Under the pieces are notes generated by a model. That model was not told where the DNA came from and did no database searches. It saw only the letters and a program-made list of their open reading frames with translations. A stretch of DNA of 64,000 bases from NCBI GenBank assembly GCA_050949565.1, contig JBMNFY010000017.1, positions 192,001 through 256,000 of the forward strand, read 5' to 3'. Numbering within the stretch: the stretch's first letter is position 1; each line of letters starts with the position of its first letter. This document shows, one piece after another, positions 6,137 to 53,399 of this stretch. Made by a program: the position numbers and the translations under genes. This DNA is from Kiritimatiellia bacterium. GTDB taxonomy: Bacteria > Verrucomicrobiota > Kiritimatiellia > RFP12 > UBA1067.

Positions 6137-6420
6137 AATCCTGTCAATCACGTCAATCACGTCAATCCTGTCAAAAATTGGTGTGCGGTGACAAGAGCCG
6201 CACTGTGCGCGGACGGCGGCTCGTGAGGACACTCGCCCTCCAGTGCTATGTCTGGGCTCGCGGAACGCCGGGAGGGACAAGTGTCACTTGTCCGCGGACG
6301 AGCAGACGCTCGTCCCTCCCCAGCGGTGGCCACGCCGCCACCCCGTAAAAAATCTCTGCGTCTCCGCGCCTCTGCGTTAAAAAACTCTCAACTCTCAACG
6401 CTCAACTCCCAACGCTCAAC
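6137..6420. repeat. Mosaic intergenic repeat island (9-mer arrays, REP-like hairpins, 7-mer array)
   Basis: aatcctgtc/aatcacgtc x4 (6137-6172); GGAGGG-type hairpin pair (about 6270-6320); ctctgcgtctccgcgcctctgcgtt (about 6354-6378); ctctcaa/cgctcaa x5 (about 6385-6419). Confidence 0.75.
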
Positions 6421-7440
6421 TTTTTGCGGGCGGGAACGCCCACCTCCGGCTGCAACCCGCGCAACGCCTCATCCGGCACAAACCCCGGGAACGCGGCGAA
6501 CGCCGCATCCACCACGCGCCGATACTCATGCACCGTGCGGCACACGCGCACGCCCTTCCAGAGCCGCTCACCGCCGACCAGCGCTTGATGCAGATAACTC
6601 CACAGTTCCTTCATGCGCCCCAGTACCGCGGCCGGTCCGTAAAGCTCCTCCTCGCACGCGGCCAGATAGTCATCCAGAAAACCTTTGAGCCGCATCGCAT
6701 CACGCGGCGGCGGCGTGTCCGTCGTCAGACGCGCAAAGACAAAGGGATCGATCGCCGCAGCGCGTCCGACCATCCAGCGCGTGATCTGCGGGAAGCGCGC
6801 TTTAAGCTGCAGGAAATCCGCGCGCGTGCGCAGATCGCCATTGTAGACCACGGGATGGCGACATGTGGCGAGCGCTGCGGCGAACGCCTCCACATCCACC
6901 GTCCCCTCATACATCTGCCGCGCGGTGCGCGCGTGGATCGTGACCTCCCGCAACGGGAAAGCCATTGATCACCGCCATACGCGCCAACAACAAGTCAGGA
7001 CGGTCAATGCCCAGCCGCACCTTCACTGAAAAGCCCTGCGGCAGTTCCTCGCAGCCGACCTCCAGCATACGCGAAAAAGCCGCTTCATCCCGCATCAAAC
7101 CGGCACCGCGCCCTTTGCGGACAATGAACGGATACGGGCACCCGGCATTGAGATCGGCGCGGGTATATCCCATCGCCTTAAACGCCCGCAATAGCGTACG
7201 CAACTGATCGGGATCTTTACCGATGACCTGCGGCACAACCGGCACGGACTGTCCTAATTCGGGATCGACATCCTTCAGCAGCAGCGGCTTGATTTTCGCG
7301 CCCGCGAAAGTCGGAATGAACGGCGCCACCGCACAGTCAGGCGGCGTAAACCAAGACGCCTGCAGATTGCGAAACGTCCTGACCGTGACCCCGCGCAGCG
7401 GTGCCAAGCAAAAGATATCGGGCTGTACAAGGTCAGACAT
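6402..7440 (-). CDS. dus: tRNA-dihydrouridine synthase family protein, split by a +1 frameshift near 6960
   Basis: N-half: LAPLRGVT, PQVIG, DLNAGCP, KGRGAGL, SVKVRLG. C-half in another frame: TIHART..QMYEG, YNGDL, MVGRAA. Confidence 0.85.
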
Positions 7441-7510
7441 GGGGTCAGCATATCAAACCGACCGCAGGGAACCAAGGCTGCAGCGCAAACGGCCGCTGGC
7501 CGTTGCGCTG

Positions 7511-7538
7511 AGTTAGGATTTAGGATTTAGGAGTTAGG
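7511..7538. repeat. Heptamer tandem repeat (A[G/T]TTAGG)x4
   Basis: agttagg atttagg atttagg agttagg. The same array recurs at about 32701-32735. Confidence 0.7.
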
Positions 7539-7550
7539 TGCATTGTCCGG

Positions 7551-7578
7551 ACGGACGTGAACGTCCGTGGCCCGCCAC
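7551..7578 (-). repeat. REP-like hairpin downstream of the RAYT gene
   Basis: Minus strand GTGGCGGGCCACGGACG-TTCA-CGTCCGT: GTGG tetranucleotide followed by a 7-bp stem. Confidence 0.75.
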
Positions 7579-7617
7579 GCCAACGCTTGACGGAGTGGGT
7601 TGTATACAGTTCGCGTT

Positions 7618-8538
7618 TCAGTTTGAGCCGGAGGCACGCGGCGATGTTAAAGCAATGGCTTGAGCCCAGCGGTTGTTGCACAAGCAGTTCTCGCGGCGCG
7701 GTACCGCCTCCTCTGTATCGGGGAAGCCACTGAGTGCAAGCGTCAGGCCGGATGCGAGCCGTTCTGCCGCCGCGTGACCATGTGGCTTGTAACGCGACAG
7801 CCCCCACGGGTGCAGGTAGATAAGCCGACTGCGGGAGATCGCCGCTGCTTCGCGCGCCACCCGACGCTCGCCCGGCGAAATGAAACCGCCGATCAGCACT
7901 GCGCCCTCGCGAGCCAGCTCAAGAAACCGCGCAACCACCGCCTCCAGTTCTTCGCCTTCCAGCCGTCGGGAGATGATGACCGGCTCCAGCCAAGGGTAGT
8001 CTAACAGGGTGCGGTCGCCGTAGGCCGTCCACCGTGTTTCAGGTGGCAGACGCGGATGGACGACATCCGTTTGCTTGGCGAACCACTGCGGATTATCTTG
8101 CCGGAGTTGCCAGCGGCGCGGATTGTCACGCACGTAGTCGGCAAAGACGTTGAATGTCGCGGAAGTGAAGGCGACAAAGTCATGAAAGCCGGCCTCCCAT
8201 ACGCTGAGTGCCGGTGCGTTTTTCAGTCGCCGGATGGCCTGGCGGGAGCGGGCCTTCATCCGTTCGACGATCTGCGAAAGCGAGTAACGGGCACCGCCTT
8301 TGCAAACCAAGATGCCGTGAAAGTGGTCGGGCATCACCACGTTTATACGGAGGCTATAAGCTGGATCGTCAGCGGGTATGCGCTGCCACGCCTCTACCAC
8401 CGCCCGGCCTTCTGGGAAAAGCTGGATACGCCCATCTCGAATTTCTGACAGCAGCGCACGGCGCGGCGCAGTGGCAAACGTGATAAAGTAGTAGCCTTCA
8501 CCACGGTAGCCATGGGTTTTGAGGCGGGCAAAGTGCAT
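7618..8538 (-). CDS. REP-associated tyrosine transposase (RAYT, Y1 HUH family) with C-terminal DprA/SLOG-like Rossmann domain
   Basis: YYFITFAT, HUH motif VMPDHFHGIL, WEAGFHD, catalytic Tyr in DYVRDNP. C-terminal ~130 aa contains GDRTLL, ISRR, AVLIGGFISPGER and R.NC...N, which resemble DprA-like domains. Confidence 0.8.
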   Translation of the reverse strand: MHFARLKTHGYRGEGYYFITFATAPRRALLSEIRDGRIQLFPEGRAVVEAWQRIPADDPAYSLRINVVMPDHFHGILVCKGGARYSLSQIVERMKARSRQAIRRLKNAPALSVWEAGFHDFVAFTSATFNVFADYVRDNPRRWQLRQDNPQWFAKQTDVVHPRLPPETRWTAYGDRTLLDYPWLEPVIISRRLEGEELEAVVARFLELAREGAVLIGGFISPGERRVAREAAAISRSRLIYLHPWGLSRYKPHGHAAAERLASGLTLALSGFPDTEEAVPRRENCLCNNRWAQAIALTSPRASGSN

Positions 8539-8554
8539 GGTTTCGGCTCCTGTT

Positions 8555-8581
8555 CAGACGTGAACGTCTGTGTTCCGCTAC
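8555..8581 (-). repeat. REP-like hairpin upstream of the RAYT gene
   Basis: Minus strand GTAGCGGAACACAGACG-TTCA-CGTCTG: GTAG plus the same loop as the 7551 copy, with a compensatory stem change. Confidence 0.75.
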
Positions 8582-8633
8582 ATAAAGGGCTCAGTTTGGC
8601 GTCGCGGATCGTGGCGGCTCACCGCCGCCATCT

Positions 8634-9746
8634 CTACAGCCCGCCCATGATCAGGCTGGCGAAGGCGCTGATCGGCGTCGTGTCGCGGAAATTGTCGACG
8701 GTCTGGCGAACGTCCTTGATCAGCCCTTGGACATCGGTGTAAAGCTCATCCTCTTTCGAGAGCTTGCCGAGCGTGCCCTCGCCTTGGACCAGCCGGTCGG
8801 TCACCTCTTTCAGGTTGGCGACCGTCGCCTGCAAGTCGTTGTAAACCGCGTTGTCGTCTTTAAGTAGCTTGGCCAGCGAACCTTCGCCGCTCTCCAGACG
8901 CTCCGAGACCTTTTTCAGATTTTCTACAGCCACCTGAAGGTCGGCATAGATCGTATCGTCTGAGGAGAGCAACCGACCGAGCGTGCCTTCGCCTTTTTCA
9001 AGCCGATCGGAGATGGATTTCAAATTCGCGATCGAGGCGCTAAGATTGGTGTAAACGTTGCCGTCGTCGTTAAGCAGACGCCCCAGCGAATTTTCGCCGG
9101 TGTCGACCTTGACCGCCACGGAACGCAGGCTTGCGACCGCGTTTGACAGATCGTTGTAAAGCGTCATGTCGTCGGAAAACAGTTTTCCAAGCGTACCTTC
9201 ACCCCGCTCGACACGCTCGACCGCAACCTTGATCGAAACGACCGCCGCATCCAGATTGGTCAAAATGTTTTTAATGTGGTTCCCTTCGGTCGCATCACGC
9301 AGGTTGGCCACGATCTCGCCCAGGTCGCGCATCCAGTCGGTCGGAGTCTCGCCTCGCAGGTCGGTTCCGGGCGGCACCTCGTCGCCCGTGCCCTCTTCGA
9401 TCAGCAGATAGTTGCCGCCCAGCAACGAGCCGCTGTTCACCGTGATACGGTAGCCTTCCCTAAAGCGTACATCGCCCTGGATCATCATCGTGACCCGTAC
9501 GCCGCTGTTTTCCAGGTCTAGTTCACTCACCGATCCGATCGTCATACCGCGCAAGACCACCGAGTCGCGCACCTTCAGTCCACCGACATCATGAAACAGC
9601 ACGGTGACCGGCACCTTGCTCTTACCGCCCAGAACATCGATCCCCGAAATGATGATCGTGAAATAGACCAGCAAGCCCAGCACAGCGACCATGAACAGGC
9701 CGACGATTACTTCGGAAAAAACCTCTCTATTCTTCTTCAGACTCAT
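8634..9746 (-). CDS. mlaD: MCE/MlaD family lipid-transport protein with long helical repeat tail
   Basis: N-terminal TM, F.DVGGLKVRDSVVLRGMTIGSV, SLLGGNYL; five GEG[T/S]LG[K/R]L..DD..Y.DL-like repeats. Confidence 0.85.
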   Translation of the reverse strand: MSLKKNREVFSEVIVGLFMVAVLGLLVYFTIIISGIDVLGGKSKVPVTVLFHDVGGLKVRDSVVLRGMTIGSVSELDLENSGVRVTMMIQGDVRFREGYRITVNSGSLLGGNYLLIEEGTGDEVPPGTDLRGETPTDWMRDLGEIVANLRDATEGNHIKNILTNLDAAVVSIKVAVERVERGEGTLGKLFSDDMTLYNDLSNAVASLRSVAVKVDTGENSLGRLLNDDGNVYTNLSASIANLKSISDRLEKGEGTLGRLLSSDDTIYADLQVAVENLKKVSERLESGEGSLAKLLKDDNAVYNDLQATVANLKEVTDRLVQGEGTLGKLSKEDELYTDVQGLIKDVRQTVDNFRDTTPISAFASLIMGGL

Positions 9747-9795
9747 ACGTCTCCCCTCTTCCATTCACTAGCCGCGATATGCATTAACTCCGCGT

Positions 9796-11363: not shown

Positions 11364-11464
11364 CGCTCGCCCCCTATGTGATTCTCTATTGTCATGAAAC
11401 CCTGCGCAGGCCCTTTTTGTGGAGTGAAATATAACAGAGATCGCGGGGGGGAGCAAGACGGGCT

Positions 11465-11632
11465 GGTTTCTGGTTCCAAGGTTTCAAGGTTCCATGGTTT
11501 CATGGTTTCATCCAAATCGGCATCGTATCGGGATCGAAATCGACCGTCGTACCCACGCAGTGGCTCGTAACGGCGAGTGTAAAGGCGGGGCGGTGATTCC
11601 GATCCCGATCCTGATGGCGATAGCGATGGCAC
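11465..11632. repeat. Mosaic repeat island (8-mer and 6-mer arrays plus partial CCACGCAGTGG module)
   Basis: ggttccaa/ggtttcaa/ggttccat/ggtttcat octamers; atcggc atcgt atcggg atcgaa; ccacgcagtggctcgtaacggcgagtgtaaa; gattcc gatccc gatcct gatggc gatagc gatggc. Confidence 0.7.
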
Positions 11633-11734
11633 CGCAACGGAACCCTGAAACGCATGATCCTCGCCCATCCCTGTCACTAACCGATTACCTGTGCTACAAT
11701 ACCGACCATCAGTCATCAGTAAAGGAGGTCCCAT

Positions 11735-14214: not shown

Positions 14215-14265
14215 GCGAAATCCCCCTATCACGGGCAAAACACGCAACCCAAGTTAACGCACGAA

Positions 14266-25513: not shown

Positions 25514-25669
25514 ATGAGTCAGCATAGCAGTTTGAAGGGTTCGGGTAAAATCACGGCGAAGCGCAATGTGTTGAAGCGTTTCGAGCGTGTCAACCTGTTG
25601 AAAAAGCGCGGCCAGTGGAAAGACGGCGATCGCGGCCTGGGCCTGCCCAAGACCAAGCCGGAAGAATAA
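25514..25669 (+). CDS. PVC superphylum signature small basic protein
   Basis: Manual translation MSQHSSLKGSGKITAKRNVLKRFERVNLLKKRGQWKDGDRGLGLPKTKPEE (51 aa) matches the family pattern S.H.SL...RNVL.R.ER...L...G.W......GLPK. Absent from the ORF track. Confidence 0.92.
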   Translation: MSQHSSLKGSGKITAKRNVLKRFERVNLLKKRGQWKDGDRGLGLPKTKPEE

Positions 25670-25753: not shown

Positions 25754-25852
25754 CTGTTTCGACCGCAATCGGTTAATGACAGGGATACGCGAGTCCAGCG
25801 CGTGTTTTGTGCGTACGCATTTTCTTGAACGTTGAACGTTGGGTGTTGAAAG

Positions 25853-31640: not shown

Positions 31641-32713
31641 ACGCGCATCCCGCCCACCGTCCCGACACCGCCGACGCGTCCGCCGCCACGCCCCGGGTGA
31701 TCGCGTGGGAGGTCACGCGCCGCTGCCCGCTGGCCTGCCGCCACTGCCGCGCCGGTGCCCAAGACCGTGCCTACGACCACGAACTGACGACCGACGAGTG
31801 CCTGCGCGTACTGGACTCCCTCGCCGCGTTCGGTCGGCCGATGATCATCTGGACCGGCGGGGAACCGATGGCGCGACCCGACATCCTCGACCTCGTCCGC
31901 GCCGCCACAGCACACGGTCTGCGTTCGGTCATGGCGCCGTGCGGCACGCTGGTCACCCGCGACCGGCTGCTGGCGCTCCAAGACGCCGGTGTCATGGCGT
32001 GTAGCTTCAGCCTCGACGGCGCCAACGCCGCCGACCACGATGCCTTTCGTGGCATCGCCGGCGCCTTCGACAACGTGACGCGCGCCATGCGCATCGCGCA
32101 AGAGATCGGCATGCCCTTTCAAGTGAACACCACCGTCTCGCGACTCACACGCGACGCGCTGCCGGCCATCCGCGAACAGGCCATCGCGCACGGCGCGCGT
32201 ACGCTCGACCTCTTCTTTCTGGTGCCGGTCGGACGCGGGGTCGGGCTGCGCGACCTCGCGCTCTCCCCCGATGAAACCGAAGCCGTCCTGCGCTGGGCCT
32301 TCGAGATGGATCGCGCAGGCCCGATCCGCGTGCGCGAAACCTGCGCACCGCAAGCCGTGCGCATCTGGCACGCGCTGGGCAAGCCCGGCCAGCATCCGGC
32401 AGGCTGCATGGGCGGACGCGGCTTCGTCTTCATCTCCCACACCGGCATCCTGCAACCGTGCGGCTTCCTTGACGTGCCCAGCGGCGACCTGCGTCAGCAC
32501 GGATTTGACTTCCGCCGCGCCTACGAGACCTCGCCGGTCTTCAACGACCTGCGCCAGCCCGACCGCTACGGCGGCGCGTGCGGCACCTGCGGTTTCCGCC
32601 AAACGTGCGGCGGCTGCCGCGCACGCGCCTACGCCGCCACCGGCGACTACATGGCCGCTGAAACGAGCTGCCCGCTCGCCGCGCCGTGCGCGGCAAGCGG
32701 AGTTAAAATTTAG
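31637..32713 (+). CDS. ahbD: Radical SAM/SPASM heme b synthase (AhbD/NirJ2-like)
   Basis: IAWEVTRRCPLACRHCRA, FFLVPVGRG, TCAPQ, GCMGG.GF.FISH.G..QPCG, CGGCRARAY. ATGA-coupled to ahbC. Confidence 0.85.
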   Translation: MNAHPAHRPDTADASAATPRVIAWEVTRRCPLACRHCRAGAQDRAYDHELTTDECLRVLDSLAAFGRPMIIWTGGEPMARPDILDLVRAATAHGLRSVMAPCGTLVTRDRLLALQDAGVMACSFSLDGANAADHDAFRGIAGAFDNVTRAMRIAQEIGMPFQVNTTVSRLTRDALPAIREQAIAHGARTLDLFFLVPVGRGVGLRDLALSPDETEAVLRWAFEMDRAGPIRVRETCAPQAVRIWHALGKPGQHPAGCMGGRGFVFISHTGILQPCGFLDVPSGDLRQHGFDFRRAYETSPVFNDLRQPDRYGGACGTCGFRQTCGGCRARAYAATGDYMAAETSCPLAAPCAASGVKI

Positions 32714-32778
32714 GATTTAGGAGTTAGGAGTTTCGGAGTTCTGCGTTGGGCGTTCTGCGTTCTGCGTTCGGCGTTCCT
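32701..32778. repeat. Heptamer tandem array (A[G/T]TTAGG grading into GCGTTCT)
   Basis: atttagg atttagg agttagg agtttcgg agttctg cgttggg cgttctg cgttctg cgttcgg. Confidence 0.7.
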
Positions 32779-32785
32779 CTCCTTG

Positions 32786-32995
32786 TTGCGACCACGCAGT
32801 GGCTCGCAATGGTGAGTGTAAAAACGGACGGAGGATGGGCACCGAGCGCGCATAGGGCATGCAATAAAGGGGGCGCGGAAAGACAGCCCGGTAAAGAGCC
32901 CGTAATGCTGCGAACGGTCACGGGCGGGGCGCGGCTGTGTGTGTGGTGCAAGGTTTTAACCTCATCTTTGTGACCACTGGGTGGTCACAAAAAAG
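32786..32995 (+). mobile_element. ~210-bp non-autonomous REPIN/MITE-like element, copy 1
   Basis: Bounded by TTG[C/T]GACCAC-N3-GTGG(C)TC[G/A]CAA palindromes. Homologous over its whole length to the reverse complement of 42195-42400. Confidence 0.7.
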
Positions 32996-33083
32996 TCGTC
33001 TAAATTCCTGTCCCTTGTTTACATCGGCTCCGGCATTATGCTACATTCTTACTGGTAAGACAAAAAGAAAGGGATGAAACATC

Positions 33084-33347
33084 ATGGAAAGAGTTGCAAC
33101 CACACGAATGTCATCCAAGGGTCAGGTCGTGATCCCAGAGGAGGTACGTAATCGCTTGTGCCTTGAACCCGGCACACAGTTCATTGTGATGGGTGAAAAC
33201 GATGTCGTGATCCTGAAGACCATCACCCCCCCATCGATGTCGGAGTTCGATACCGTTGTGGCCCGTGCCCGTCGGCAGGCCAAGGCGGCTGGCATGAAGC
33301 CCTCTGACATCACCCGTGCCGTTGCCAAGGTGCGGGGGCGAGCGTGA
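33084..33347 (+). CDS. AbrB/MazE/SpoVT family DNA-binding antitoxin
   Basis: TTRMSSKGQVVIPEEVRNRL.L..G..F.V......IL. Confidence 0.9.
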   Translation: MERVATTRMSSKGQVVIPEEVRNRLCLEPGTQFIVMGENDVVILKTITPPSMSEFDTVVARARRQAKAAGMKPSDITRAVAKVRGRA

Positions 33348-33375
33348 AAGTCGTTGCTACGCACATCTGGTTACC
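33344..33375 (+). pseudogene. Possible 5' stub of a deleted PIN-domain (VapC-like) toxin
   Basis: GTGA overlap with the antitoxin stop. MKVVATHI resembles the MKVVxDTN start of PIN toxins, and the sequence then passes into repeat DNA. Confidence 0.4.
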
Positions 33376-33506
33376 GAGGGATAAATGTGGTCACACCTCG
33401 TGCTTTCTTGAGCGACTTGTAAGCCGTCCAAACACCAGCCGTCTAAATGCCTGTCCCTTAGTTGCTATGTACGGCAAAGTAGGGCGGGACGTCTCGGACC
33501 GCTCAT

Positions 33507-33714
33507 CGGCCCAAAGGGCCGGATGCACCATAGCCCGGGGCAAGCGGAGCGCAGCCCCGGGTAGCGTCACCCCCATCCATGTGCCCTGAAAGGGCACTTC
33601 TATCCACGTCCTGTCATTTTTGAGGTGGCCCTTCAGGTCACAGAACTTCGGTTTTCTTGACCCAGGGCTGCGCTCCGCTTGCCCTGGGCTAAGGTGAGGC
33701 CGCCCCTTCAGGGC
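33507..33714. mobile_element. ~200-bp multi-hairpin element with 31-bp internal inverted repeats (IS200/RAYT-type non-autonomous repeat)
   Basis: agcccggggcaagcggagcgcagccccgggt (33532-33562) is inverted against acccagggctgcgctccgcttgccctgggct (33660-33690); also gccctgaaagggc / gcccttcag hairpins. Confidence 0.65.
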
Positions 33715-34242
33715 TTGGGCCGTCTAAATACCTGTCCCTTAGTTGCTGAAGTTATAGGCAAGGAGTTGCATCCCTTCTGCGTTGGGCGTTCTGCGTTCAG
33801 AGTTCGGCGTTCTTCTCCTTGTTGCGACCACGCAGTGGCTCGCAACCGTGAGAGTAAAAACGTTGCTCTGTGTTTTCTCGCGAAGAGGGCGGCGTGACCG
33901 CCGCCGGTCAAGCAGACGCTTGACCCTCCCGGTGCTTCGCAAAAAACTTATTACATCTTACCTATTACTTCTCACCTCCGCCTGTCGCGACTCGCGCTTT
34001 GCGTTCGGTGTTGGGTGTGTTTTTTTCCTGCATGTCCAGCACCGAACTGAGCTGTTTTTCGAGAATTTTAAGTTGTTCTTTCCTGATTCTCACGACATCC
34101 TGAAGCAGCCCGATGATCGCTTCCTCCGGGGGCTTGCCCTTGAAATCCGAGAGAACGACCTTTGCACTTGGAACCTCCTTTTTTGCAACGTCAGCAACCG
34201 CCGTCCCGTAAGCCGAAGGCTGACGAGGGATGGTGTGTCGCC

Positions 34243-34974
34243 TTATTCACCTGTCTTTTTCTTCAGAATAATTAGCGTTGAGGGCTGTTGGTATCGGACG
34301 TTGACACGGAGTGGTTCAAAACCATCGGCTTCAACCCCGATGATGGACGTTCCGGTTTGATAGGCAATCCACTCCCCATCTTTATGCGCTTTCTCAAACG
34401 CTTTCATCTGAAAGTTATACCGAGCTTTTTGATAGGCGGTGCTGTCTTTACCAAAATCACTTTCACGGGGTTCCGGCACGTCCATGGTAAAAGAGCCTTT
34501 CTTACAACCGTAAGCGGCAAAGACATTGATAATGGCGTTAAAGTTGCCGTTCGTGTCTGTTGTGAAAGGCAGAACATTCTTTAATTTTTCGCCAAGCAAC
34601 ATGTCATCGTTTAGCTTAAAGAAGCGGGCTAAAGGAACCGGAACGATCTCACCTTCTTTTGCGATGTGGACAATTTTCCCCATAAACAAGACTTCTGTCC
34701 CACCATCCCCATGCCCCAGCTCCGGGTCGAGATTCAATTCGTCAAACTGCGCCTTCGGATGGGTGGTCGGATGAGTGTACGGATCAGGGGATGACTCACT
34801 AACGACGACAATAGGAGCTGCATTGGTCATAACGTACAGCTTTGGCTTCGAGCACAATTCTCCTTCGCAGGCCACCTCGGATTTTGAGCATCCGGAAACG
34901 AGCAAAAGAAGCAGTAACGTCGCGAACAATCTCATTTTGTTATCGTTCTTACCTTTTTGTGTTTCATGCTTCAT
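34243..34974 (-). CDS. AT-rich hypothetical lipoprotein
   Basis: MRLFATLLLLLLVSG-C lipobox (likely start 34935). Base composition visibly lower in GC than neighbouring genes. Confidence 0.7.
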   Translation of the reverse strand: MKHETQKGKNDNKMRLFATLLLLLLVSGCSKSEVACEGELCSKPKLYVMTNAAPIVVVSESSPDPYTHPTTHPKAQFDELNLDPELGHGDGGTEVLFMGKIVHIAKEGEIVPVPLARFFKLNDDMLLGEKLKNVLPFTTDTNGNFNAIINVFAAYGCKKGSFTMDVPEPRESDFGKDSTAYQKARYNFQMKAFEKAHKDGEWIAYQTGTSIIGVEADGFEPLRVNVRYQQPSTLIILKKKTGE

Positions 34975-35194
34975 GGTCAGAAGTTGGCTCCAGCCGTCTA
35001 AACACCTGTCCCTTGGTTGCGCAAGGCTGCTGCCGGACCGTGTGGCACGGGCATCTTGCCCGTGTGGCGGCGTGACCGCCGCCGGTCAAGCAGACGCTTG
35101 ATCCTCGTTAGATGCTCTCTTCAAAATAATCGGCATCAACTCTCTTAACCGGATATAGCGAAACCGTGGATACACCAACATCATGATCAATCAT

Positions 35195-36645
35195 CAAGGA
35201 CTTTCCCCAAAAAATCGGGGGCAATTATATCTAAGTCCTTGAAAACAAAGGGGATGCGTCTCTGACGGGCGTGCCTGAAAGTGAAAAAGTGGTTTTCCTC
35301 CGCCGGTTCTGCCAAAATGGCGGTTCAACCAAAAACCAAAAACCGGAAAGGAAAACCGACGTGAATCATAGCGCAACGGCGTTCAAAGCGCGAGAGCAAC
35401 TCAAGAATTTTTTGGGGGAACTTTCCCCCCGGTTTTCCAAGCCGCTCGGCAAGTTCGTGGGCGACATGGTCTACGGGATACAGGCGTCGCAGGACGTGAA
35501 GCTCAGCCGGATCGCCCGCGCGCTCGACGAGCCGATATCGATGAAGAAACTGGAGGACAGGCTGAGCCGGATGCTCGGGAGCGAGGGCATCGAGCAGGGG
35601 ATTTCCGACGCTGTCGCCCGTCTGGGCTCGCGTCACGTCCATCAGGACACGCTGATCGTCATCGACCCGACCGACATCCGTAAGCTGTACGCGAAGAAGA
35701 TGGAATATCTCGCCCGCGTCCGGGACGGGAGCACGGGGGAGATCGGCAACGGATACAGCGCCTGCCTGGCGGTCGCCTGCGAGAGCGGCGGCCGCCGGAT
35801 CACGCCGTTGCACATGCGGCTGTGGTCGAGCGAGGCGGAGGGCTTCATCGGCCAGAACGACGAGGTGCTCGGCGTCATCGACCAGATCAGCTCCCGCGCG
35901 AAGAAGCGCGGCATCTACGTCATCGGCCGCGGAGGCGACGGAGACTGGCTGTTCGACGGCCTGGACCGGCGCAAACTGGACTACATCGTGCGCCTCGTGG
36001 GCAACCGCAACCTGCTCCACGGCCGGCGGACCGCGCTGGCCGAAGAACTGGCGGCATCCTGCCCCATGAAGCACATCGAGATCGTCACGAGGGAGACGGG
36101 GGACGGGGTGAAAAGCTATAAGCTGGAGTTCGGCGCCATGACCGTCGCCCTGCCGCAGAGGCCCGACAAGCCCCTGCGCATGGTCGTGGTGAAGGGGTTC
36201 GGCGAGCGGCCGATGCTCCTGCTGACCACGCTGGCCGGGACGACGTCGCGCAAGTCCCTGTGGCAGGTCGTCGAGGGCTATCTGACGCGGTGGCGCGTCG
36301 AGGACGCGATCCGCTTCGTCAAGCAGAGCTACAACCTCGAGGACGTCCGGGTCCTGACGTACCGGCGCCTGAAAAACATGGTCGCTCTGCTGCTGGCCGT
36401 CATCTACTTCAACTGCGTCTGGCTGGCCGGACGGCTGCGCTGCGAGATCCTGACGACCAACATCACCCACGCCGCCAAGCGCATCTACGGCGTGGCCGAG
36501 TTCCTCCACTACGCCGTCGCCGACGGCCTCGGGAGGCTCTTCACGCGCCACGGGAAATGGTACGGCTACAAGCCGCCAGACCCCGAATCAAACCCGCTCG
36601 GACTGGTCTTTCTGGAATGACCAGATTTTTTGGGGAAACTCCTTA
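35195..36645 (+). mobile_element. IS4-family insertion sequence
   Basis: 22-bp terminal IRs, 20/22 identical: CAAGGACTTTCCCCAAAAAATC (35195-35216) and GATTTTTTGGGGAAACTCCTTA (36624-36645). They enclose a DDE transposase. No target duplication visible. Confidence 0.88.
35361..36620 (+). CDS. IS4-family DDE transposase (second catalytic Asp apparently Gly)
   Basis: IVIDPTD, IYVIGRGGD, YREK signature YLTRWRVEDAIRFVK. Probable GTG start at 35361. Confidence 0.88.
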   Translation: MNHSATAFKAREQLKNFLGELSPRFSKPLGKFVGDMVYGIQASQDVKLSRIARALDEPISMKKLEDRLSRMLGSEGIEQGISDAVARLGSRHVHQDTLIVIDPTDIRKLYAKKMEYLARVRDGSTGEIGNGYSACLAVACESGGRRITPLHMRLWSSEAEGFIGQNDEVLGVIDQISSRAKKRGIYVIGRGGDGDWLFDGLDRRKLDYIVRLVGNRNLLHGRRTALAEELAASCPMKHIEIVTRETGDGVKSYKLEFGAMTVALPQRPDKPLRMVVVKGFGERPMLLLTTLAGTTSRKSLWQVVEGYLTRWRVEDAIRFVKQSYNLEDVRVLTYRRLKNMVALLLAVIYFNCVWLAGRLRCEILTTNITHAAKRIYGVAEFLHYAVADGLGRLFTRHGKWYGYKPPDPESNPLGLVFLE

Positions 36646-42194: not shown

Positions 42195-42400
42195 CTTTTT
42201 GCGACCACCCAGTGGTCGCAAAGATGAGGTTAAAACCTTACACCATGCAGCCGCGCCCCGCCCGTGACCATTCACAGCATTTTGGGCACTTTTCTGGGCT
42301 GTCTCCCCGCACGCCCTTCATTGCATGCTCTTCGTGCGCCCGGCACCCATCCTCCCGACCATTTTTACACTCATCATTGTGACCACCCAGTGGTCACAAT
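42195..42400 (-). mobile_element. ~205-bp REPIN/MITE-like element, copy 2
   Basis: Palindromic ends ttgcgaccacccagtggtcgcaa and ttgtgaccacccagtggtcacaa. Internal sequence aligns with 32786-32995. Confidence 0.7.
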
Positions 42401-42535
42401 AACTTGCGGCCAGCCCTGCCCTCCTAAAAAAACTCTGCGTCTCTGCGCCTCTGCGTTAAAAAACCCGAGCAATGCCCAAAAAAATCTGCGTAATCTTGCA
42501 ATCTGTGGATGTAAAAAACCGCAGCCCTGCCCCCA

Positions 42536-43579: not shown

Positions 43580-43684
43580 CTTAGCCCTCCATCCATTGCC
43601 GTTACTATGGTTGCCAGCATAGCAAAAAAGCGCCCCCGCGTCATCGGCAAGTGATCTACCCGTAATTCGGTAACGGGAACCCTC

Positions 43685-43731
43685 GTGGCATGGGCGTTCC
43701 CCGTGGGACACGGGCAAGATGCCCGTGCCAC
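43685..43731. repeat. Inverted pair of GTGG-REP hairpins
   Basis: gtggcatgggcgttccccgtg...cacgggcaagatgcccgtgccac. Family members at 35042-35064, 48333-48357, 49508-49525 and 53326-53374. Confidence 0.75.
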
Positions 43732-43840
43732 ACCTGCAAGCAAAAGAGTTGGCAAGCGCCTTCAACGAAAAAGCAGCACTGTGCCTTTTTAATATTTTGT
43801 GTTTTCGTGGCAAGAACCTGGGTTGTGGGCTCCGCCCGCG

Positions 43841-44784: not shown

Positions 44785-44799
44785 AGCATCCTCCTCGAC

Positions 44800-46866: not shown

Positions 46867-46972
46867 TCAGTTCCTTTCCCGCGTCGTGCGCCCCAAAGTG
46901 CGGCGACGCAATGAATGTTCGTCTTGCCAAACTTTTATTGCAAAAAAAGAGAAGGTGCCGGTTTTCCGAGGA

Positions 46973-47997: not shown

Positions 47998-48030
47998 GAC
48001 TATGGCCTCTCCAAATCCTTTTCCTCTCAA

Positions 48031-48073
48031 AGTTCGGAGTGCCGAATATACTACGCCAAACCGTACATATCAA
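48031..48073 (-). promoter_or_regulatory. Putative sigma70 promoter with overlapping palindromic operator for the feo operon
   Basis: Minus strand TTGATA-17 nt-TATATT. Palindrome TTCGG-N4-CCGAA at 48033-48046 overlaps the -10/+1 region. Confidence 0.55.
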
Positions 48074-48120
48074 CGGGGAAGATTCGTTTTTTCGTCATTT
48101 TTTTTCGTAATTCCGTTTTC

Positions 48121-48272
48121 CACTTAGTCCCCCACACTTAGTCGCCACACCTAGTCGAGTACACTTAGTCCCCTACACTTAGTCGATTGCGCCGGAGACG
48201 AAGTGTGTGGATTAAGTGTGAGTGACGAAGTGTAAACGACGAAGTGTTGGGATCAAGTGTAGGGACTAAGTG
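48121..48272. repeat. Head-to-head tandem array of 13-14-bp units forming a ~150-bp imperfect palindrome
   Basis: Five ACACTTAGTC-type units followed by six GAC[T/G]AAGTGT-type units. Confidence 0.8.
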
Positions 48273-48655
48273 CGGCTCGCGGGGACGCTCGCCCCCCGCC
48301 GGCCTAAAGGGCCGGATGCCCAAGCCACAGGGGCACGGACATTCCTGTCCGTGCCACGGGTTGGAAAACCCGTGCTCCTTTCGCCGCGCGTAGAGCGGCC
48401 GGTCAAGCGGAAATCCACTGGACGATCTGACGCAGGGTGGTGTATGCTGTTTTTGCTGGCCTCGTGGTTGTGCGGTCACGCGCCTTGGTCGATCTTTTTT
48501 TCATAATGCCTGTAGGTTACAGGCAGACGGCCACGAGGCCAACGTTTTTTAAGTTGTCAGCGAACCCTATGGGATGCTAGTGAACAAGGATAGCATTTCG
48601 CGATTTTTAGGCAGAAATTTTACACGCTTGAATAGTAGTCAAGGAGTGCGTTATT

Positions 48656-49258
48656 ATGGAAAAAAAATGTTTCTTACTGTTTTTCTTTCTTTTATGCAGG
48701 ACATTGGACGCGCAAGCTCAAACCAACACATGTTTTGTGGATATTTTTGAACAAACGTATTGGACGCCGTCCGTTCCTGACAACGTTAGGACAAATTTTA
48801 TCACATGGCTTTCTGATATCCCTAAGAGCGAAGCCGAGGCATTCCACAGAATTAAAGGGAAGTATGAATCACTCATTAAGCGGTGGAGCGCACTCTATCT
48901 TGTAGAATTGGGACTAACCGCACCGAGAACGCTTTACATCGGGTCATTTACTGAAAAATCGGCAAACGTCCTGATTTACGATCAAACGGGGCAATCATTC
49001 TGGACGGTTGGAAACGTCTCATCGTTTGAGAAGCCCCATGAAATCCAGCCTGCACTCGTAACCAGAATCGAGTCATTTGATTTTCTTCTTGGACAAACAG
49101 AAGGGCTAAATGCACGGGCATACCAGCTTTTTTTAATCAAATGGCGGATCGCCAACTGTGTCATGGATGGGATACGTATTGATGTTTCAGAAGAGGATAT
49201 CATGGGCGCGAGAGCATGTTTGAACTCATGCCGGGGTGCGCAAGAAAAGGGATCGTAA
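48656..49258 (+). CDS. AT-rich secreted hypothetical protein
   Basis: RBS AAGGAG, signal peptide MEKKCFLLFFFLLCRTLDAQA, low-GC sequence. No family recognised. Confidence 0.65.
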   Translation: MEKKCFLLFFFLLCRTLDAQAQTNTCFVDIFEQTYWTPSVPDNVRTNFITWLSDIPKSEAEAFHRIKGKYESLIKRWSALYLVELGLTAPRTLYIGSFTEKSANVLIYDQTGQSFWTVGNVSSFEKPHEIQPALVTRIESFDFLLGQTEGLNARAYQLFLIKWRIANCVMDGIRIDVSEEDIMGARACLNSCRGAQEKGS

Positions 49259-49397
49259 TTTGACATTGGACACAGTGGCAACTAAGAGACAGGTGTTTTG
49301 ACGACTGTGTGTAAACGACGAAGTGTTGGGATCAAGTGTCGAGAGGAGTGCGGCTCGCGGGGACACTCGCCCTTCAGCCTTCGCGTGAAACAACCGG

Positions 49398-49525
49398 GCA
49401 GCGCTTTTACTCTCAAGATTGCGAGCCACTGCGTGGTCGCAATAAGAGAGGTTGACTCGCGACCCGCGACTTGCGACTTGCGGCCAGCCCTGCCCCCAAA
49501 AAACCTCGTGGCATGGGCGTCCCGC
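49398..49525. repeat. ~125-bp composite repeat, direct copy of 53221-53343
   Basis: gcagcgcttttactctcaag.ttgcgagccactgcgtggtcgcaataagagaggttga...gcggccagccc...gtggcatgggcgtcccgc present in both copies. Confidence 0.8.
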
Positions 49526-49759
49526 ATCGTCAACAACTGCCGGGAACCGGCCCGCGAAACTGACTATCTGAATGAGGCCAAAGGAGCCGCTCACGTCGAT
49601 CACGCCGCCCAGCGGATCTCGGTTATGTCGGGTTCGCGAAGATCCACCGCATAGCCGACGCGGCGCAGCGAGTCGGCGACGACCCACAGCGTGGGGAGAT
49701 CGGCATTAACGCCCAGATCGATGCGGAACCATGCAACACTCAACTTTCAGTTGCGTTCT

Positions 49760-52700
49760 TCATTGTAGCGTGAACAGGATGCCGCGCGCTGTATCGCGGA
49801 TGTAGCCGTCTGCGGTCTGCCAGGCGCACCGTCCGGAGGGCGTGACAAAGCAACCGAGTTGCGTGGACGTGAGCTGCTGCTGGAAGCGCAGGGTGTCGGT
49901 CTCAAGATTGCCGGTCAGCGTGACGGTCGCGTCGGGGTCGAAGAGTGCCGGGCCGATGGCCAGCGGGGTCTCGCCGAAATCGAGCACTGACGTACCGGTG
50001 AAGAGCGTCTCTCCAGCAAGATTGAGTACGGCGGGCATTTGCGGACGGACGATGGCACTGTCGAGCGTGAGTGCGATATCACCCGTGAAGGCGTCGGCTG
50101 TAGCAAGCGTCAGCACGGCGTTGGTCGAGAGGCTCACCGTGAGCGGCACGTTCTGCGTGGCGGTGATGCGCAGCTCGGCACCTGACAGAACGGCGAGCGT
50201 GTTTGTGCCGGCGAGGGCGTTCGGCGCTTCGAGGCACAGCGCGCCACCGCGCACGGTGATCGGTCCGCCGAACGTACTGCCGGAAGCGGCGAGGATCATG
50301 GACGCCGGGCCGGCCTTGACCAGCGGCTGGTCGTAAAGTCCGATCTGCGGGTAATCGCGCATGGATGCGGTGACAGCGAAGTCAACATGGCACTCGACAG
50401 TAAAGGGGGCTTTTTGCGCATTATTGACGAGGGTGAAGCCTGCGGCGTTTGTGGAAGCCGCTGGCCCGAGAATCAGCCAGTGGGCGGCGCCCGCATTGCC
50501 GACGCGCACACGGTTGCCGACGAGGCGGGCTCCGTTCTGCAGCGTCATGTTGTTGGCGTATTGACCAGAATCGCCGATGTCGAAGGAATAGAGCCGACAC
50601 TCGGAGGCATTGAGCGTGATCGGGCGGGACATGCCGAGCGTGAAGAGACCGTTCGGGTACAGGATCGAGTCGCCAGAGAGCACAAGCGGACAGCCATTCC
50701 CGAGGCCCCCGGCATCGGGTGAACGGTGGAGCGCGGTAACGAGAGTAGCACCGTCTCGTACTTGGATAGAGGTGGGCGCGGGACTGGAAATGATGGGGGC
50801 GCTGATGTAGGCCGTGCGCCGCTCCACGGTAATCGGCCCGGCAAAGGCAGTGCCGCCGGAGAGCGTGGCCGGCAGCGGCGTGCCGCCTTGGATTAGGGCG
50901 AGCGACATCACGCCATAGCCTTCCGCTGTATTGTTGGTAGCGATAGAGGTGGTCGTCGCGCCGGGGTTAGTATCGAAATCAAAACCGGTCAGAAAGCGAC
51001 TGAGGACGTAGCTCGCATACTCGCAGGAGGCGACAATGTCAGAGCCCTGCTGCGCGAGGCGGACTTTCACGCACTTGGTGTGAACGTCGTCAAAAACTTG
51101 CGCTTGGAAGGCGACGGTACCATCCTCGGCGACACGCCAGTGATAGACGTTGGCTGGAACAGGGCTGCCCCGTCCGTCGCTGATCCACAACCCTCCCAAT
51201 GTGACGACCGCATCGGTGATCTCGGAAAGGTTCACGCCGGTCAGGACGGTGTCGGCGGCCGGCGCTTTCGGCAGAGGCACATTGTGAACCGGATTAGTGA
51301 CCGCCGACTGCGGGGCACCGGCGGGAGCAGCGATGCGCAGGGCGCCTCTGCCGACCGGCGCGACGGGGAGTGTGACGGGATCGAGCGTGTCCAAGGCGAG
51401 CAGCGATGCGACACCGGAGAGTGCGACACGCGCGGGGAACTGCTGTACGGGAGAGAAGGCGGCATTGCCCAGCGTGACGCGTCCCGGCAGATCGACAGGC
51501 TGTCGCGCGGTCAAGCCAACGGTTGTCAGGCTAGCCTGTAGACGGACGATATTGACGCCGTTGGCCGTGTCGGAACCGGTGGCCAGCGGCAACTCATCGC
51601 CTGCAAGGTCGAAGTCGATGCCGCGGCGATCTTGATGCGGGCTTTCGGGCAATACCAAGGACTTGGCGTAAAGCGCACGGGCGGAGAGTCCTGCCGCGTC
51701 CTCAGTGAGTTCGACCTTGACGCAATAGGTGGCGTTGGCCTCGGCAGCCTGAAACTGGACCGTGGCGGTCGTGGGCGAGGTGCGCTGCCAATGGAAGGGC
51801 TGAGCGGGCAGAAGATCCCGGTTGTTGACACCGCTGCCACCGATATACGCCTCAAAGTCGGTGACTCGATCAAGTTTCGCGTTGTCACCGGTCGCCAGTG
51901 TCGCAGCGGGTGTTTCGGTCGGCAGATAAGAACTGGTTGCGTGAGCCGGAAGAAGCATGAAGGCAGGGCAGCCGTACCCGCCTGCGGTGAGATTGGGAGC
52001 GATCGAACCCATGTCCCCGCCTGAGTCGAAATCGAAGCCGACCTGATATGCATCGCGGTGGTATTTCGCATACACGGCACGGCCATAAATGCCGTCCGGC
52101 TGCTGCGTCAGTTCGATCTTGAGGCATTTCGTGTGTATGCCCCTGTCGCGGCGCTGGAGTTGGAAGGATGCGGTGGCGCCGTCGTTCACAAAGTAGAAGA
52201 TGTGCGCGTCCGCATAATCGTCATCGAACGACCCACCGGCCATCAGAGCGGCGGCGGAGTGATAGTTCGCGAGCGTGGCTCCGGGGAAGAGCAACGTGGA
52301 CGAGGCTGTTATGAAGCTCGTGTGGATGAGCGGCTGCGGCGCGGGCGTATCCGCCACGCTCAGTTCTGGTGCGCGGAAGAGCATCAGGCTGGAAGCAAAA
52401 TAGTTGGTGCCGTTATCCGTGCCGGTAGTATCAAAATCGATGCGTCCGGCCATGTCATAGAACGTTTGGGCGTAACGAGCATAGACGGCGCGACCGTAAA
52501 TGCCGTCCGGCTGCTGTGCCAGCGCAACCTTCACGCACTTGACGAATTTTCCTTCGCGTGCACCGTTCTCGAAGAATTGCAGTTGGAAGGTGGCGTTCGC
52601 GCCATCGTTAGTGAAAAACAGGGCACGCGAATAGCTGTCTCTGTAAGCCAGTGCCACGCTCGACCCGGCGACGGTCCCCTCGGCACCAGTCACATCCGCC

Positions 52701-53083
52701 AGCGCGGCATCGGGGAAGAGCAGTACGCTATTGGTAGGAATTGCGCCGCCCTTCCAAGTGAGTGTCGGCAGAGACGCTTCAGACGCTGCCATGCCGCCCT
52801 CGACGGCGATATCCCGCGCACTGGGGCGGATCATGGTTTCGGCGGAGAGCCTGATCGCCGCCGCGATATCCTGCGACACGGTGATGACGGAGGGGTTGGT
52901 GACGGATGCGGTGTCGCCTACACCGGGCACGGCAGCCGGCGACCAGGCGGCGGGATCGTGGAAATCACCTGTACCGGCAGTGAAGACATTCGTCTCTCCG
53001 GCAGCGCAGACGGCCAACGGCACGACGAGCGCGAGAACTTGCAACATGACGGCATACGAGAAGATTCTGATTTTCATAGTCAT
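49760..53083 (-). CDS. Large secreted protein with four copies of an unrecognised ~130-aa domain plus beta-strand repeats
   Basis: Signal peptide, W.P..VP..GD, four FQ.Q...[K/Y]C[V/L]K[V/I].L......YA......DFD units, LVKAGP..TFGG...V.GG.L. Confidence 0.8.
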   Translation of the reverse strand: MTMKIRIFSYAVMLQVLALVVPLAVCAAGETNVFTAGTGDFHDPAAWSPAAVPGVGDTASVTNPSVITVSQDIAAAIRLSAETMIRPSARDIAVEGGMAASEASLPTLTWKGGAIPTNSVLLFPDAALADVTGAEGTVAGSSVALAYRDSYSRALFFTNDGANATFQLQFFENGAREGKFVKCVKVALAQQPDGIYGRAVYARYAQTFYDMAGRIDFDTTGTDNGTNYFASSLMLFRAPELSVADTPAPQPLIHTSFITASSTLLFPGATLANYHSAAALMAGGSFDDDYADAHIFYFVNDGATASFQLQRRDRGIHTKCLKIELTQQPDGIYGRAVYAKYHRDAYQVGFDFDSGGDMGSIAPNLTAGGYGCPAFMLLPAHATSSYLPTETPAATLATGDNAKLDRVTDFEAYIGGSGVNNRDLLPAQPFHWQRTSPTTATVQFQAAEANATYCVKVELTEDAAGLSARALYAKSLVLPESPHQDRRGIDFDLAGDELPLATGSDTANGVNIVRLQASLTTVGLTARQPVDLPGRVTLGNAAFSPVQQFPARVALSGVASLLALDTLDPVTLPVAPVGRGALRIAAPAGAPQSAVTNPVHNVPLPKAPAADTVLTGVNLSEITDAVVTLGGLWISDGRGSPVPANVYHWRVAEDGTVAFQAQVFDDVHTKCVKVRLAQQGSDIVASCEYASYVLSRFLTGFDFDTNPGATTTSIATNNTAEGYGVMSLALIQGGTPLPATLSGGTAFAGPITVERRTAYISAPIISSPAPTSIQVRDGATLVTALHRSPDAGGLGNGCPLVLSGDSILYPNGLFTLGMSRPITLNASECRLYSFDIGDSGQYANNMTLQNGARLVGNRVRVGNAGAAHWLILGPAASTNAAGFTLVNNAQKAPFTVECHVDFAVTASMRDYPQIGLYDQPLVKAGPASMILAASGSTFGGPITVRGGALCLEAPNALAGTNTLAVLSGAELRITATQNVPLTVSLSTNAVLTLATADAFTGDIALTLDSAIVRPQMPAVLNLAGETLFTGTSVLDFGETPLAIGPALFDPDATVTLTGNLETDTLRFQQQLTSTQLGCFVTPSGRCAWQTADGYIRDTARGILFTLQ

Positions 53084-53220
53084 CCCTTCTTCTGAGGCCT
53101 TTACAACGCAGGTTATCACTCCATCACGGTTGGTTTACAGTGCCGAAATCTGGGGAAAAAGTCAAGCCCATGGCGCGTTATTTTGTGGCCGGATTTGCCG
53201 CTTCGCGGCGAAAGGGCAGA

Positions 53221-53399
53221 GCAGCGCTTTTACTCTCAAGGTTGCGAGCCACTGCGTGGTCGCAATAAGAGAGGTTGATCCGCGACTCGCGACTTGCGGC
53301 CAGCCCAGCCCCCCAAAAAAACCTTGTGGCATGGGCGTCCCGCCCATGAAACACGGGCAAGATGCCCGTGCCACACCTCTGCGTTGAAAAAACCCGAGC
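53221..53399. repeat. Composite repeat island (direct copy of 49398-49525 plus GTGG-REP pair)
   Basis: See 49398. gtggcatgggcgtcccgcccatg-aaa-cacgggcaagatgcccgtgccac at 53326-53374. Tail ctctgcgtt..aaaaaacccgagc is shared with about 42449-42470. Confidence 0.8.

Follow-up and report, generated by a model that had tools for sequence, protein, structure and literature searches.

The window, by which we mean the whole 64,000-nucleotide stretch analysed here, lies in the Kiritimatiellia genome G000. A preliminary description had placed nine intergenic islands in it that reuse a common set of repeat modules, and all nine islands were recovered together with the modules assigned to them (Table 1). 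The core of module (a) matches at 10 positions in the window against 0.04 expected from shuffled sequences, that of (f) at 5 (0.00 expected) and that of (b) at 7 (0.23 expected). The inventory drawn up at that time proved correct in what it listed, but overlooked a number of modules as well as the RAYT-like gene at 7618-8538. The worry that the repeats could be assembly chimeras was not borne out. Contigs from four studies tile most junctions between 32780 and 34976 with practically no mismatches, each contig piece spanning only part of that stretch, and the island at 11465 is crossed end to end by single contigs in two runs. In run X2, the main contigs diverge from the window at 11462 and rejoin it at 11728, with different letters in between.

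Table 1. Repeat islands, genes and mobile-element ends in the window (feature, positions, strand, remarks).
Feature	Positions	Strand	Remarks
Island 1: 9-mer array, truncated H hairpin, c1, c2 doublet, c3, 8-mer and 7-mer arrays, I hairpin	6143-6448		
7-mer array and hairpin, 3' of RAYT-like gene	7513-7572		related hairpin upstream at 8551-8575
RAYT-like Y1 HUH gene, 306 aa	7618-8538	-	HuH and Tyr intact; C-terminal extension
Island 2: 8-mer array, 6-mer array, degenerate module (a)	11464-11586		
Module M, IS66-family terminal inverted repeat	11660-11688	-	second copy at 25765-25793, +
7-mer arrays, then ~210-bp module-(a) doublet (REPIN-like)	32699-32993		
Module f, TIRYT-associated repeat	32994-33022	-	left crossover point; 1998-bp block absent from G004
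AbrB/MazE-type antitoxin gene	33084-33347	+	within f-bounded block; short broken ORF next, possibly a PIN toxin remnant
f, P hairpin, module (d) long inverted doublet, f, 7-mer array, (a), U, c3, c2, 14-mer array	33437-33977		
Low-GC (46.6%) ORF	34243-34974	-	no family hit; within f-bounded block
f, b, c3, c2	34992-35110		f is the right crossover point
Inverted module-(a) doublet, T, 8-mer array, distal 9-mer-type array	42198-42511		
Module-(b) doublet	43685-43760		resembles decayed 101-bp IS5/IS1182-type MITE, judged by eye
Inverted 13/14-mer arrays, c1, d-type hairpin, K and J hairpins, c2 remnant	48121-48420		
Low-GC (44.1%) ORF	48656-49258	+	no family hit; end meets G-type repeat 49250-49272
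f, 13-mer remnant, then recurrent chain c1-U-(a)-7-mer-T-(b)	49278-49525		
Chain (a)-7-mer-T-(b) doublet-8-mer stub	53221-53399		

The modules are not confined to the window; they occur in tens to hundreds of copies across the genome, mostly between genes. PWM searches of G000 returned 150 matches to (a), 481 to (b), 178 to (c1), 314 to (c2), 44 to (d) and 85 to (f), of which 7, 59, 1, 17, 8 and 5, respectively, fall in coding sequence. At least three hairpin families share a spacer in 123 of 2213 cases, compared with null means of 28.3 (maximum 40) under uniform and 57.9 (maximum 70) under length-weighted placement (200 simulations each). A BIME is a cluster of one REP family with set linkers. 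That layout is not seen here, as a spacer holds up to nine hairpin families and 301 of the 321 multi-family spacers have distinct module orders; the islands hold more families than a BIME, as had been suggested. The order of modules is only partly free, however: of 285 oriented neighbour pairs, 29 are commoner than in any of 300 label permutations. Together these 29, some of which are parts of one element, account for 610 of the 1392 heterologous adjacencies. A broader repeat listing gives 901 repeat islands, a figure that includes CRISPR-like repeats and IS copies and is not an island count.

Modules (a), (b), (c1), (c2) and (f) each flank a RAYT- or TIRYT-like Y1 HUH gene of their own, supporting the suspected link to RAYT transposases; G000 holds about a dozen such genes or fragments. 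The partner of (a) is the RAYT at C20:21986, in which the palindrome itself encodes the C-terminus. The core of (a) lies beside 8/8 orthologs in other genera when judged by eye, with 2/8 passing the G000 PWM cut-off. For (b), the RAYT domain sits within a methyltransferase ORF (C10:220531), while the Y1 genes of (c1), (c2) and (f) are found at C7:218920, C18:1819-2703 and C17:1660627. Neither G000 nor 30 loci drawn from four genomes yielded a cognate Y1 gene for (d). As to the 5' hairpin foot GT[AG]G of REPtrons, the consensus of (b) begins with GTGG, and those of (a), (c1) and (c2) lack the foot. HuH is invariant across nine aligned proteins and Tyr is present in all eight whose aligned part reaches its position. 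All nine RAYT-like proteins score 32-62 bits against NF047646, below the cut-off of 80, and an alignment HMM was used in place of PF01797, which misses the window RAYT and several paralogs in a genome search. The best fold match of the module-(a) protein is 4er8. Its model also matches DprA structures (E about 1e-4) and aligns to a PF02481 protein with a probability of 87%; a DprA-like domain is predicted on five RAYT paralogs, and the C-terminal extension of the window protein aligns to the domain predicted for a paralog. The window gene is absent from the orthologous site in G001, G003 and G006. Repeats of the G type are inverted around the Y1 gene C8:242526, as in TIRtrons. Among f-family orthologs, 14 of 23 loci are bracketed by inverted repeats with common 11-mers, and 4 of the 23 by direct ones; next to the f gene of G000, the closest f copies have direct orientation. 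A DUF559 nuclease was considered as the source of GGAGGG hairpins and dropped, with no match in G000, and the single-copy ORF6N gene showed no tie to module (a).

The short tandem arrays accompany other genes. Arrays of 7-, 8- and 14-mers flank four-helix-bundle genes, and 8- and 9-mer arrays flank GxxExxY genes. Arrays adjoin 19 of 27 four-helix genes, compared with 2 of 26 distant windows, and common inverted 9-mers surround 61 of 78 GxxExxY genes from many phyla, compared with 5 of 67 controls. Among the papers listed, titles and abstract openings yielded no report of flanking arrays for PDDEXK_3, PF13366, TIGR04256, GxxExxY or four helix bundle genes.

Modules also lie inside MITEs of the DDE type, in three families whose ends are like those of IS5/IS1182, IS66 and IS1380. 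The 101-bp b-doublet MITE belongs to the IS5/IS1182-like family, whose cognate transposase is present in G000, and shows a perfect 4-bp target duplication in 28 of 49 copies (null 0.7%). The corresponding IS carries a b doublet in its right end in all 11 copies among the matches listed. A 283-bp MITE has perfect 5-bp duplications in 14 of 28 copies and one orthologous site that is empty in G004. Its first 98 bp are ~90% alike to a 1.7-kb element in G023, which reads as IS1380-like from its sequence; no full-length copy was seen among the TIR pairs of G000, an assembly 92% complete. Module M is the terminus of 2-kb IS66 elements. M-bounded elements of 267-997 bp are present or absent between genomes, with 9-bp duplications in the cleanest cases, and 28 M-bounded pairs in G000 enclose 24 different interiors. 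Perfect 9-bp duplications accompany 1 of these 28 pairs and 8 of 31 metagenome loci, where one 8-bp case was also seen. An IS66 transposase was not found in seven genomes of the genus. One IS481-like element was considered as targeting M and discarded, as only 1 of 7 listed full copies lies in it. The right ~245 bp of island 1 recur as a chain in three further islands at 84-88% identity, and one of these copies (C4:23926) sits within an M-bounded element. MITE-type sites at C6:48416, C20:89267 and C17:992283 are filled in G000 and empty in G004, and the reverse holds for G004 inserts at C4:92802, C10:35273 and C17:1899414. Because intact MITEs contain only 361 of 3429 intergenic modules (~10%), such carriers explain a minority of the present copies.

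Comparison with relatives bears out the proposed active accretion and adds turnover to it, since the islands are not fixed and orthologous sites differ. Relative to the sister genome G004, a fragmented assembly of which 1.06 of ~3.5 Mb was compared and in which repeats bias the islands that assemble, 22 of 27 multi-family spacers differ versus 10 of 127 module-free ones (11 of 15 versus 1 of 20 after length matching). Syntenic arrays with variable content, as in NIME arrays, are seen in relatives. The site of island 1 is empty in G001, G003 and G006 and holds another mosaic in G002 and G004. At 42198-42511, the left part is common to G000 and G004, but ~60 bp on the right are missing from G004; at 53221-53399 the G004 version is nearly identical, while in G002 the right end of the island is missing and the contig stops before the left flank. 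In the 257 kb sampled from the congeners G001, G003 and G006, the modules are nearly absent.

That the islands might also move passenger genes is supported by one 2-kb block bounded by f; genes beside most modules, in contrast, are not low-GC cargo. G004 has a hybrid f copy in place of the block and lacks 1998 bp, the exchange falling within an 8-bp core of f. From the sequences, this gene block was likely gained or lost by crossover inside f, with microhomology deletion or the Y1 enzyme specific to f as the likely means. Where f copies neighbour each other, their orientation is direct in 26 of 30 cases. GC-poor genes make up 4.5% of those adjoining f versus 6.2% genome-wide, whereas 24% of genes adjoining the G repeat are below 55% GC, compared with 6% genome-wide.

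We consider it probable that about twenty small repeat families, unrelated to one another, form the islands as nested pile-ups, having inserted into each other and spread partly as composites in DDE-type MITEs. Y1 enzymes would seed single hairpins and doublets, and spacers tolerant of one insert would take further ones. MITEs with acquired island DNA may then copy module chains to new sites, while deletion, array slippage and occasional recombination would trim and remix these chains. The earlier suspicion of a single undescribed system is not supported, as at least three unrelated enzyme classes, besides DDE-type MITE carriers, stand behind the modules. A more elaborate version is tentative and would surprise us somewhat if correct: a relay of unrelated mobile systems, in which GxxExxY nucleases and four-helix-bundle genes mobilise their own inverted array ends as an undescribed REPIN-like class, RAYT-DprA fusions anneal cut hairpins into other islands, and composites, at times with genes, are exported by IS-derived MITEs and the Y1 enzyme specific to f, even from one genus to another where they live together.

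The islands could instead be shuffled mainly by gene conversion or ectopic homologous recombination among themselves, with modules as homology arms and perhaps with aid from the predicted DprA-like ssDNA-annealing domain on the five RAYT paralogs. Islands do tile from a median of four tracts of other islands, the flanks of the 283-bp MITE are non-matching in half of its copies, and the DprA resemblance and PF02481 alignment fit such a role; the accessible text of Bentley 2007 (PMC1797815) proposes this route for NIME arrays. Overlap at tract junctions exceeds 10 bp in 240 of 958 cases but is at most 5 bp in 673. Replacement breakpoints fall in modules in 28 of 94 cases against a module coverage of 31%, that is, without enrichment, although this test is coarse, the module library being incomplete and the genomes 3.5% apart; moreover, for only 5 of the 47 replaced islands does a G000 donor extend across the two junctions. 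We regard recombination as the main shuffler as unlikely. More improbable still is one dedicated, undescribed cassette system of integron-like type that builds arrays and captures genes with f or M as its recombination site. The direct orientation of f neighbours, the gene block exchanged in the f core, the variable interiors of M-bounded elements and the GC-poor neighbours of the G repeat would all suit it. The modules, however, are spread over unrelated enzyme families, f-family orthologs lie mostly in inverted brackets, f-adjacent genes are not GC-poor overall, and both f and M are missing from most islands. Least credible, in our judgement very much so, are islands as host-selected regulatory structures (terminators, RNA stabilisers or nucleoid sites), with selection adjusting their variety. 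Modules are enriched in convergent spacers (141 of 275, versus 351 of 1567 tandem and 86 of 371 divergent), but this bias also fits simple tolerance of inserts. Contents are swapped or missing at orthologous sites, congeners nearly lack the modules in the 257 kb sampled, and an Rfam scan of the whole window gave 0 matches.

Nested pile-ups of this kind are mosaics of the BIME/NIME-like type. As far as the accessible texts of Quentin 2018 (PMC6006769) and Bertels and Rainey (bioRxiv 10.1101/2021.07.10.451892) describe REP/REPIN-RAYT systems and BIMEs, the likeness lies in single-copy Y1 HUH genes each flanked by their own palindrome family, in dispersed inverted doublets and in several families per genome. 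Here, in contrast, the families are interleaved with non-RAYT arrays, modules reside inside DDE-type MITEs and are patchy among congeners, and a DprA-like C-terminal domain is predicted; DprA is unmentioned in the main text of Quentin 2018. Like the TIRtrons/TIRYT in the accessible part of Di Nocera 2013 (PMC3733652), modules f and G are end repeats of Y1 genes that form no hairpin, come close in sequence to the GGGGWSAS motif and are dispersed as dimers and clusters, but the f copies in G000 are mostly direct and one f pair bounds a present/absent gene block. NIME arrays, which the same portion of Bentley 2007 states to be unseen outside Neisseria, are likewise intergenic mosaics that take up MITEs and IS and vary in content at syntenic sites; our islands involve many enzyme families, and no dRS3-like 20-bp inverted repeat that could be a single scaffold was seen among the 90 top 16-mer families. 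With MITEs of IS5/IS1182, IS66 and IS1380 they share terminal inverted repeats common to the IS, fixed-length duplications and empty sites, yet what fills the interiors here are REP-like hairpins and tandem arrays captured from other families, and one full-length IS bears a REP doublet in its own end. The heptamer repeats of Beggiatoaceae, Cyanobacteria and Bacteroidetes (MacGregor 2015, PMC4679880, main text) are also abundant intergenic 7-mer arrays of uncertain origin and possibly mobile, whereas here arrays are inverted flanks of four-helix-bundle and GxxExxY genes; that main text uses none of the terms 'four helix', '23S' and 'PDDEXK'. Neither MITE carriers of modules nor a predicted RAYT-DprA fusion was found in the openly accessible papers searched.

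These observations extend NIME-like dynamic mosaic arrays to a bacterium of the PVC group. They provide sequence evidence that REP-type repeats hitchhike in DDE-type MITEs, and even in the end of a full-length IS, which amounts to a RAYT-independent route of spread. They also supply candidate enzyme-substrate pairs, namely GxxExxY with its 9-mer arrays, the Y1 enzyme specific to f, and those RAYTs for which a DprA domain is predicted. With such pairs available, the origin of bacterial intergenic 7-9-mer arrays becomes testable.

The islands and modules of the preliminary description exist in the window far above chance (module a, 10 matches against 0.04 expected; f, 5 against 0.00; b, 7 against 0.23). 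Copies were counted throughout the source genome G000 (4.66 Mb, 60% GC, 92% complete; the window is C17:192001-256000) with weight matrices seeded at window coordinates and with tandem-repeat calls; because genes were called with our own codon model (3351 genes), the split into coding and non-coding DNA is approximate. The modules are not confined to the window: mostly intergenic copies number 150 for a, 481 for b, 178 for c1, 314 for c2, 44 for d, 85 for f and 142 for M, and periods of 7, 8, 9 and 14 form peaks among the non-coding tandem arrays. At least three hairpin families occur together in 123 of 2213 spacers, with null means of 28 and 58, and module order is distinct in 301 of the 321 multi-family spacers. 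Oriented neighbour types exceeded all 300 permutations in 29 of 285 cases (c1-U, 31 observed against 0.8 permuted; a-T, 27 against 0.6, U and T being further small modules), and module chains are therefore copied as units. Two families of about 80 copies each among the top 16-mers are presumably CRISPR-like repeats. Matching DNA was found mainly in bioreactor, digester and sludge metagenomes. Most junctions of window 32780-34976 were recovered in contigs of four studies, and the 11465 island is crossed by single contigs in two runs, which argues against assembly chimeras. The single extra base that splits a Dus gene (Table) is absent from all four runs compared and is probably an assembly error.

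Each main family flanks its own gene elsewhere in G000. When RAYTs, the Y1 HUH proteins tied to REP repeats, were matched to hairpin families, a, b, c1 and c2 each had a cognate gene; for module d none was found in G000 or in 30 loci examined. In an alignment the RAYT-like proteins keep the HuH motif and the tyrosine, and they score under the NF047646 cut-off; homologs of one of the RAYTs are labelled Kiritimatiellae, Lentisphaerae and Verrucomicrobia. A search of 200 other genomes of the class gave eight orthologs of the module a RAYT; the module core is visible beside all eight, but just two of these loci pass the weight-matrix cut-off. Of 30 ortholog loci retrieved for the f gene, 23 included both flanks, and inverted 11-mers are shared in 14 of these 23; f with its Y1 gene matches the TIRtron class as outlined in excerpts of Di Nocera (2013, PMC3733652). 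The ortholog of the window RAYT 7618-8538 in the sister genome G004 (locus L009, contig C61) has lost 449 bp that span the 3′ portion of the gene together with the hairpin downstream of it; the upstream hairpin is absent in both G002 and G004.

Coordinates of features in the source genome (G000) and the window
Feature	Location	Observation
Module a RAYT	G000:C20:21986-22891	Flanked by module; palindrome encodes last residues of protein; predicted DprA/SMF-like C-terminal region
RAYT domain flanked by module b	G000:C10:220519-222891	Inside DNA methyltransferase ORF with in-frame module b peptides; stop within RAYT domain
Gene flanked by module c1	G000:C7:218920	
Gene flanked and interrupted by module c2	G000:C18:1819-2703	
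Y1 gene flanked by module f		335 aa
RAYT-like paralog	G000:C9:27999-29189	Predicted DprA/SMF-like C-terminal region
RAYT-like paralog	G000:C17:288883-289884	Predicted DprA/SMF-like C-terminal region
RAYT-like paralog	G000:C17:1007290-1008228	Predicted DprA/SMF-like C-terminal region
Window RAYT	window 7618-8538	Predicted DprA/SMF-like C-terminal region
Stand-alone PF02481 protein	G000:C1:2307-2897	Adjoins an island
G-type TIRtron repeats	G000:C8:242459-244852	Short inverted pair around GC-poor genes (0.47-0.51)
G-type TIRtron repeats	G000:C7:150644-153146	As above
G-type TIRtron repeats	G000:C8:220588-224352	As above
143-bp composite of 9-mer arrays	G000:C17:778572-781575	Tandemly amplified, 21 copies
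Dus gene	window 6955-6961	Broken into two ORFs by one extra base
Small basic protein	window 25514-25669	51 aa; no Pfam match; we take it to resemble a PVC signature protein
IS4/IS701-like element	window 35197-36645	About 13 near-identical copies in G000; adjoins 34992 island

For the module a RAYT, the structure predicted by AlphaFold (pLDDT 89.6) matched TnpA-REP best and DprA structures as well, and the protein's C-terminal part could be aligned to a PF02481 protein. This region, predicted to be DprA/SMF-like, is common to five paralogs, one of them the window gene.

The arrays of 7- to 9-mers and 14-mers belong to genes other than RAYTs. Arrays of 7-, 8- and 14-mers flank four-helix-bundle genes in 19 of 27 located loci (of 30; controls, 2/26), and 9-mer arrays flank GxxExxY genes across many phyla, in 49 of the 78 usable loci (of 80), with inverted shared 9-mers at 61/78 against 5/67 controls. 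Inverted array pairs without a gene are also present in G000: of 388 close 8/9-mer pairs, 84 are inverted, and some pairs are tandem copies of one unit. A literature search covering openly available main texts found no published account that links arrays to GxxExxY or four-helix-bundle genes, nor one of RAYT-DprA fusions.

The islands differ between relatives. Window 6112-6445 corresponds to 89-92 bp in G001, G003 and G006, where the island is absent, and to a different mosaic, common to both and built from the same toolkit, in G002 and G004. Across 198 spacers orthologous between G000 and G004 (870 kb of G004; flanking sequence 96.5% identical), indels of at least 15 bp occurred in 22 of 27 multi-family spacers, in 12 of 44 with one or two families and in 10 of 127 without modules; after length matching the counts were 11/15, 6/18 and 1/20. 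Within the species, the 11465 island has a different sequence in metagenome run X2. Loci L017 and L018 (G004:C122 and C123) lose synteny with the window at islands 43685, 48121 and 49278, through either rearrangement or misassembly. Most modules are dense in samples of G000, G002, G004 and G274 (another genus) and nearly absent from G001, G003 and G006, for which the samples cover 257 kb; this pattern suggests a recent and patchy expansion.

Clean indels (117 events in 1.06 Mb) and empty sites against G004 revealed three DDE-type carriers. In a 101-bp element, the ends of an IS5/IS1182-like IS enclose a b doublet, and 28 of 49 copies have a perfect 4-bp duplication (null 0.7%); the IS itself has at least 11 copies, and in the 11 among the matches listed the b doublet lies inside the right end. 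The second carrier, of 283 bp, holds an inverted 9-mer pair with 6- and 8-mer arrays and shows a perfect 5-bp duplication in 14/28 copies, several of them inserted inside other modules; a module lies within 40 bp in 15/28, a count made without a null model. An element of 1.7 kb in G023, with a transposase that we read as IS1380-like, matches the end of this carrier. In the third case, IS66 elements of 2 kb (PF03050) have module M as their terminal repeat. Elements bounded by M measure 267-997 bp, and one of them contains about ten module families; they are present in one of G000 and G004 and absent in the other. The 28 M-bounded pairs in G000 enclose 24 interiors; a perfect 9-bp duplication accompanies only 1/28 of these and 8/31 in metagenome loci, and no IS66 transposase was found among seven genomes of the genus searched. 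Intact carriers contain 361 of the 3429 intergenic modules of G000.

Recombination between islands was also considered. The 287 islands tiled are covered by a median of four tracts from other islands, and the DprA-like region predicted on the module a RAYT is a further lead towards it. However, where islands had been replaced, the breakpoints were no more frequent in modules than the background predicts (28/94 against 31%), and a donor spans both junctions in only 5 of 47 replaced islands. We rank recombination as a contributor rather than as the driver.

Passenger genes, which the accretion process had been suggested to move as well, did move in at least one case. The f copies at 32994 and 34992 correspond to one hybrid copy in G004, which lacks the intervening 1998 bp with an AbrB gene and a 46.6%-GC ORF. 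The crossover lies within an 8-bp core common to both copies; because 8 bp is too short for ordinary RecA exchange, cutting by an f-specific enzyme or microhomology deletion is likely. Neighbouring f pairs are direct in 26/30. Cargo movement is nevertheless not general. Beside f there is no overall excess of GC-poor genes (4.5% under 55% GC, against 6.2% genome-wide); beside the G repeat, 24% are under 55% GC. One 1835-bp contig of run X7 matches the AbrB gene (window 33167-33355), then diverges into other sequence and may represent an intact toxin-antitoxin pair at another site.

The islands behave like BIMEs, yet fail the single-family definition, and like the Neisseria NIME arrays as outlined in excerpts of Bentley (2007, PMC1797815) and Di Nocera (2013), although no counterpart of the dRS3 scaffold occurs among the 90 top 16-mer families of G000. 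Of the proposal of an undescribed system more complex than a BIME, active accretion and a larger number of families are supported, and a single undescribed system is not. The islands are real and dynamic, and most of their components fall into established classes, namely TIRtrons, MITEs and REPtrons, the last as partly set out by Quentin (2018, PMC6006769) and Bertels and Rainey (bioRxiv 10.1101/2021.07.10.451892).
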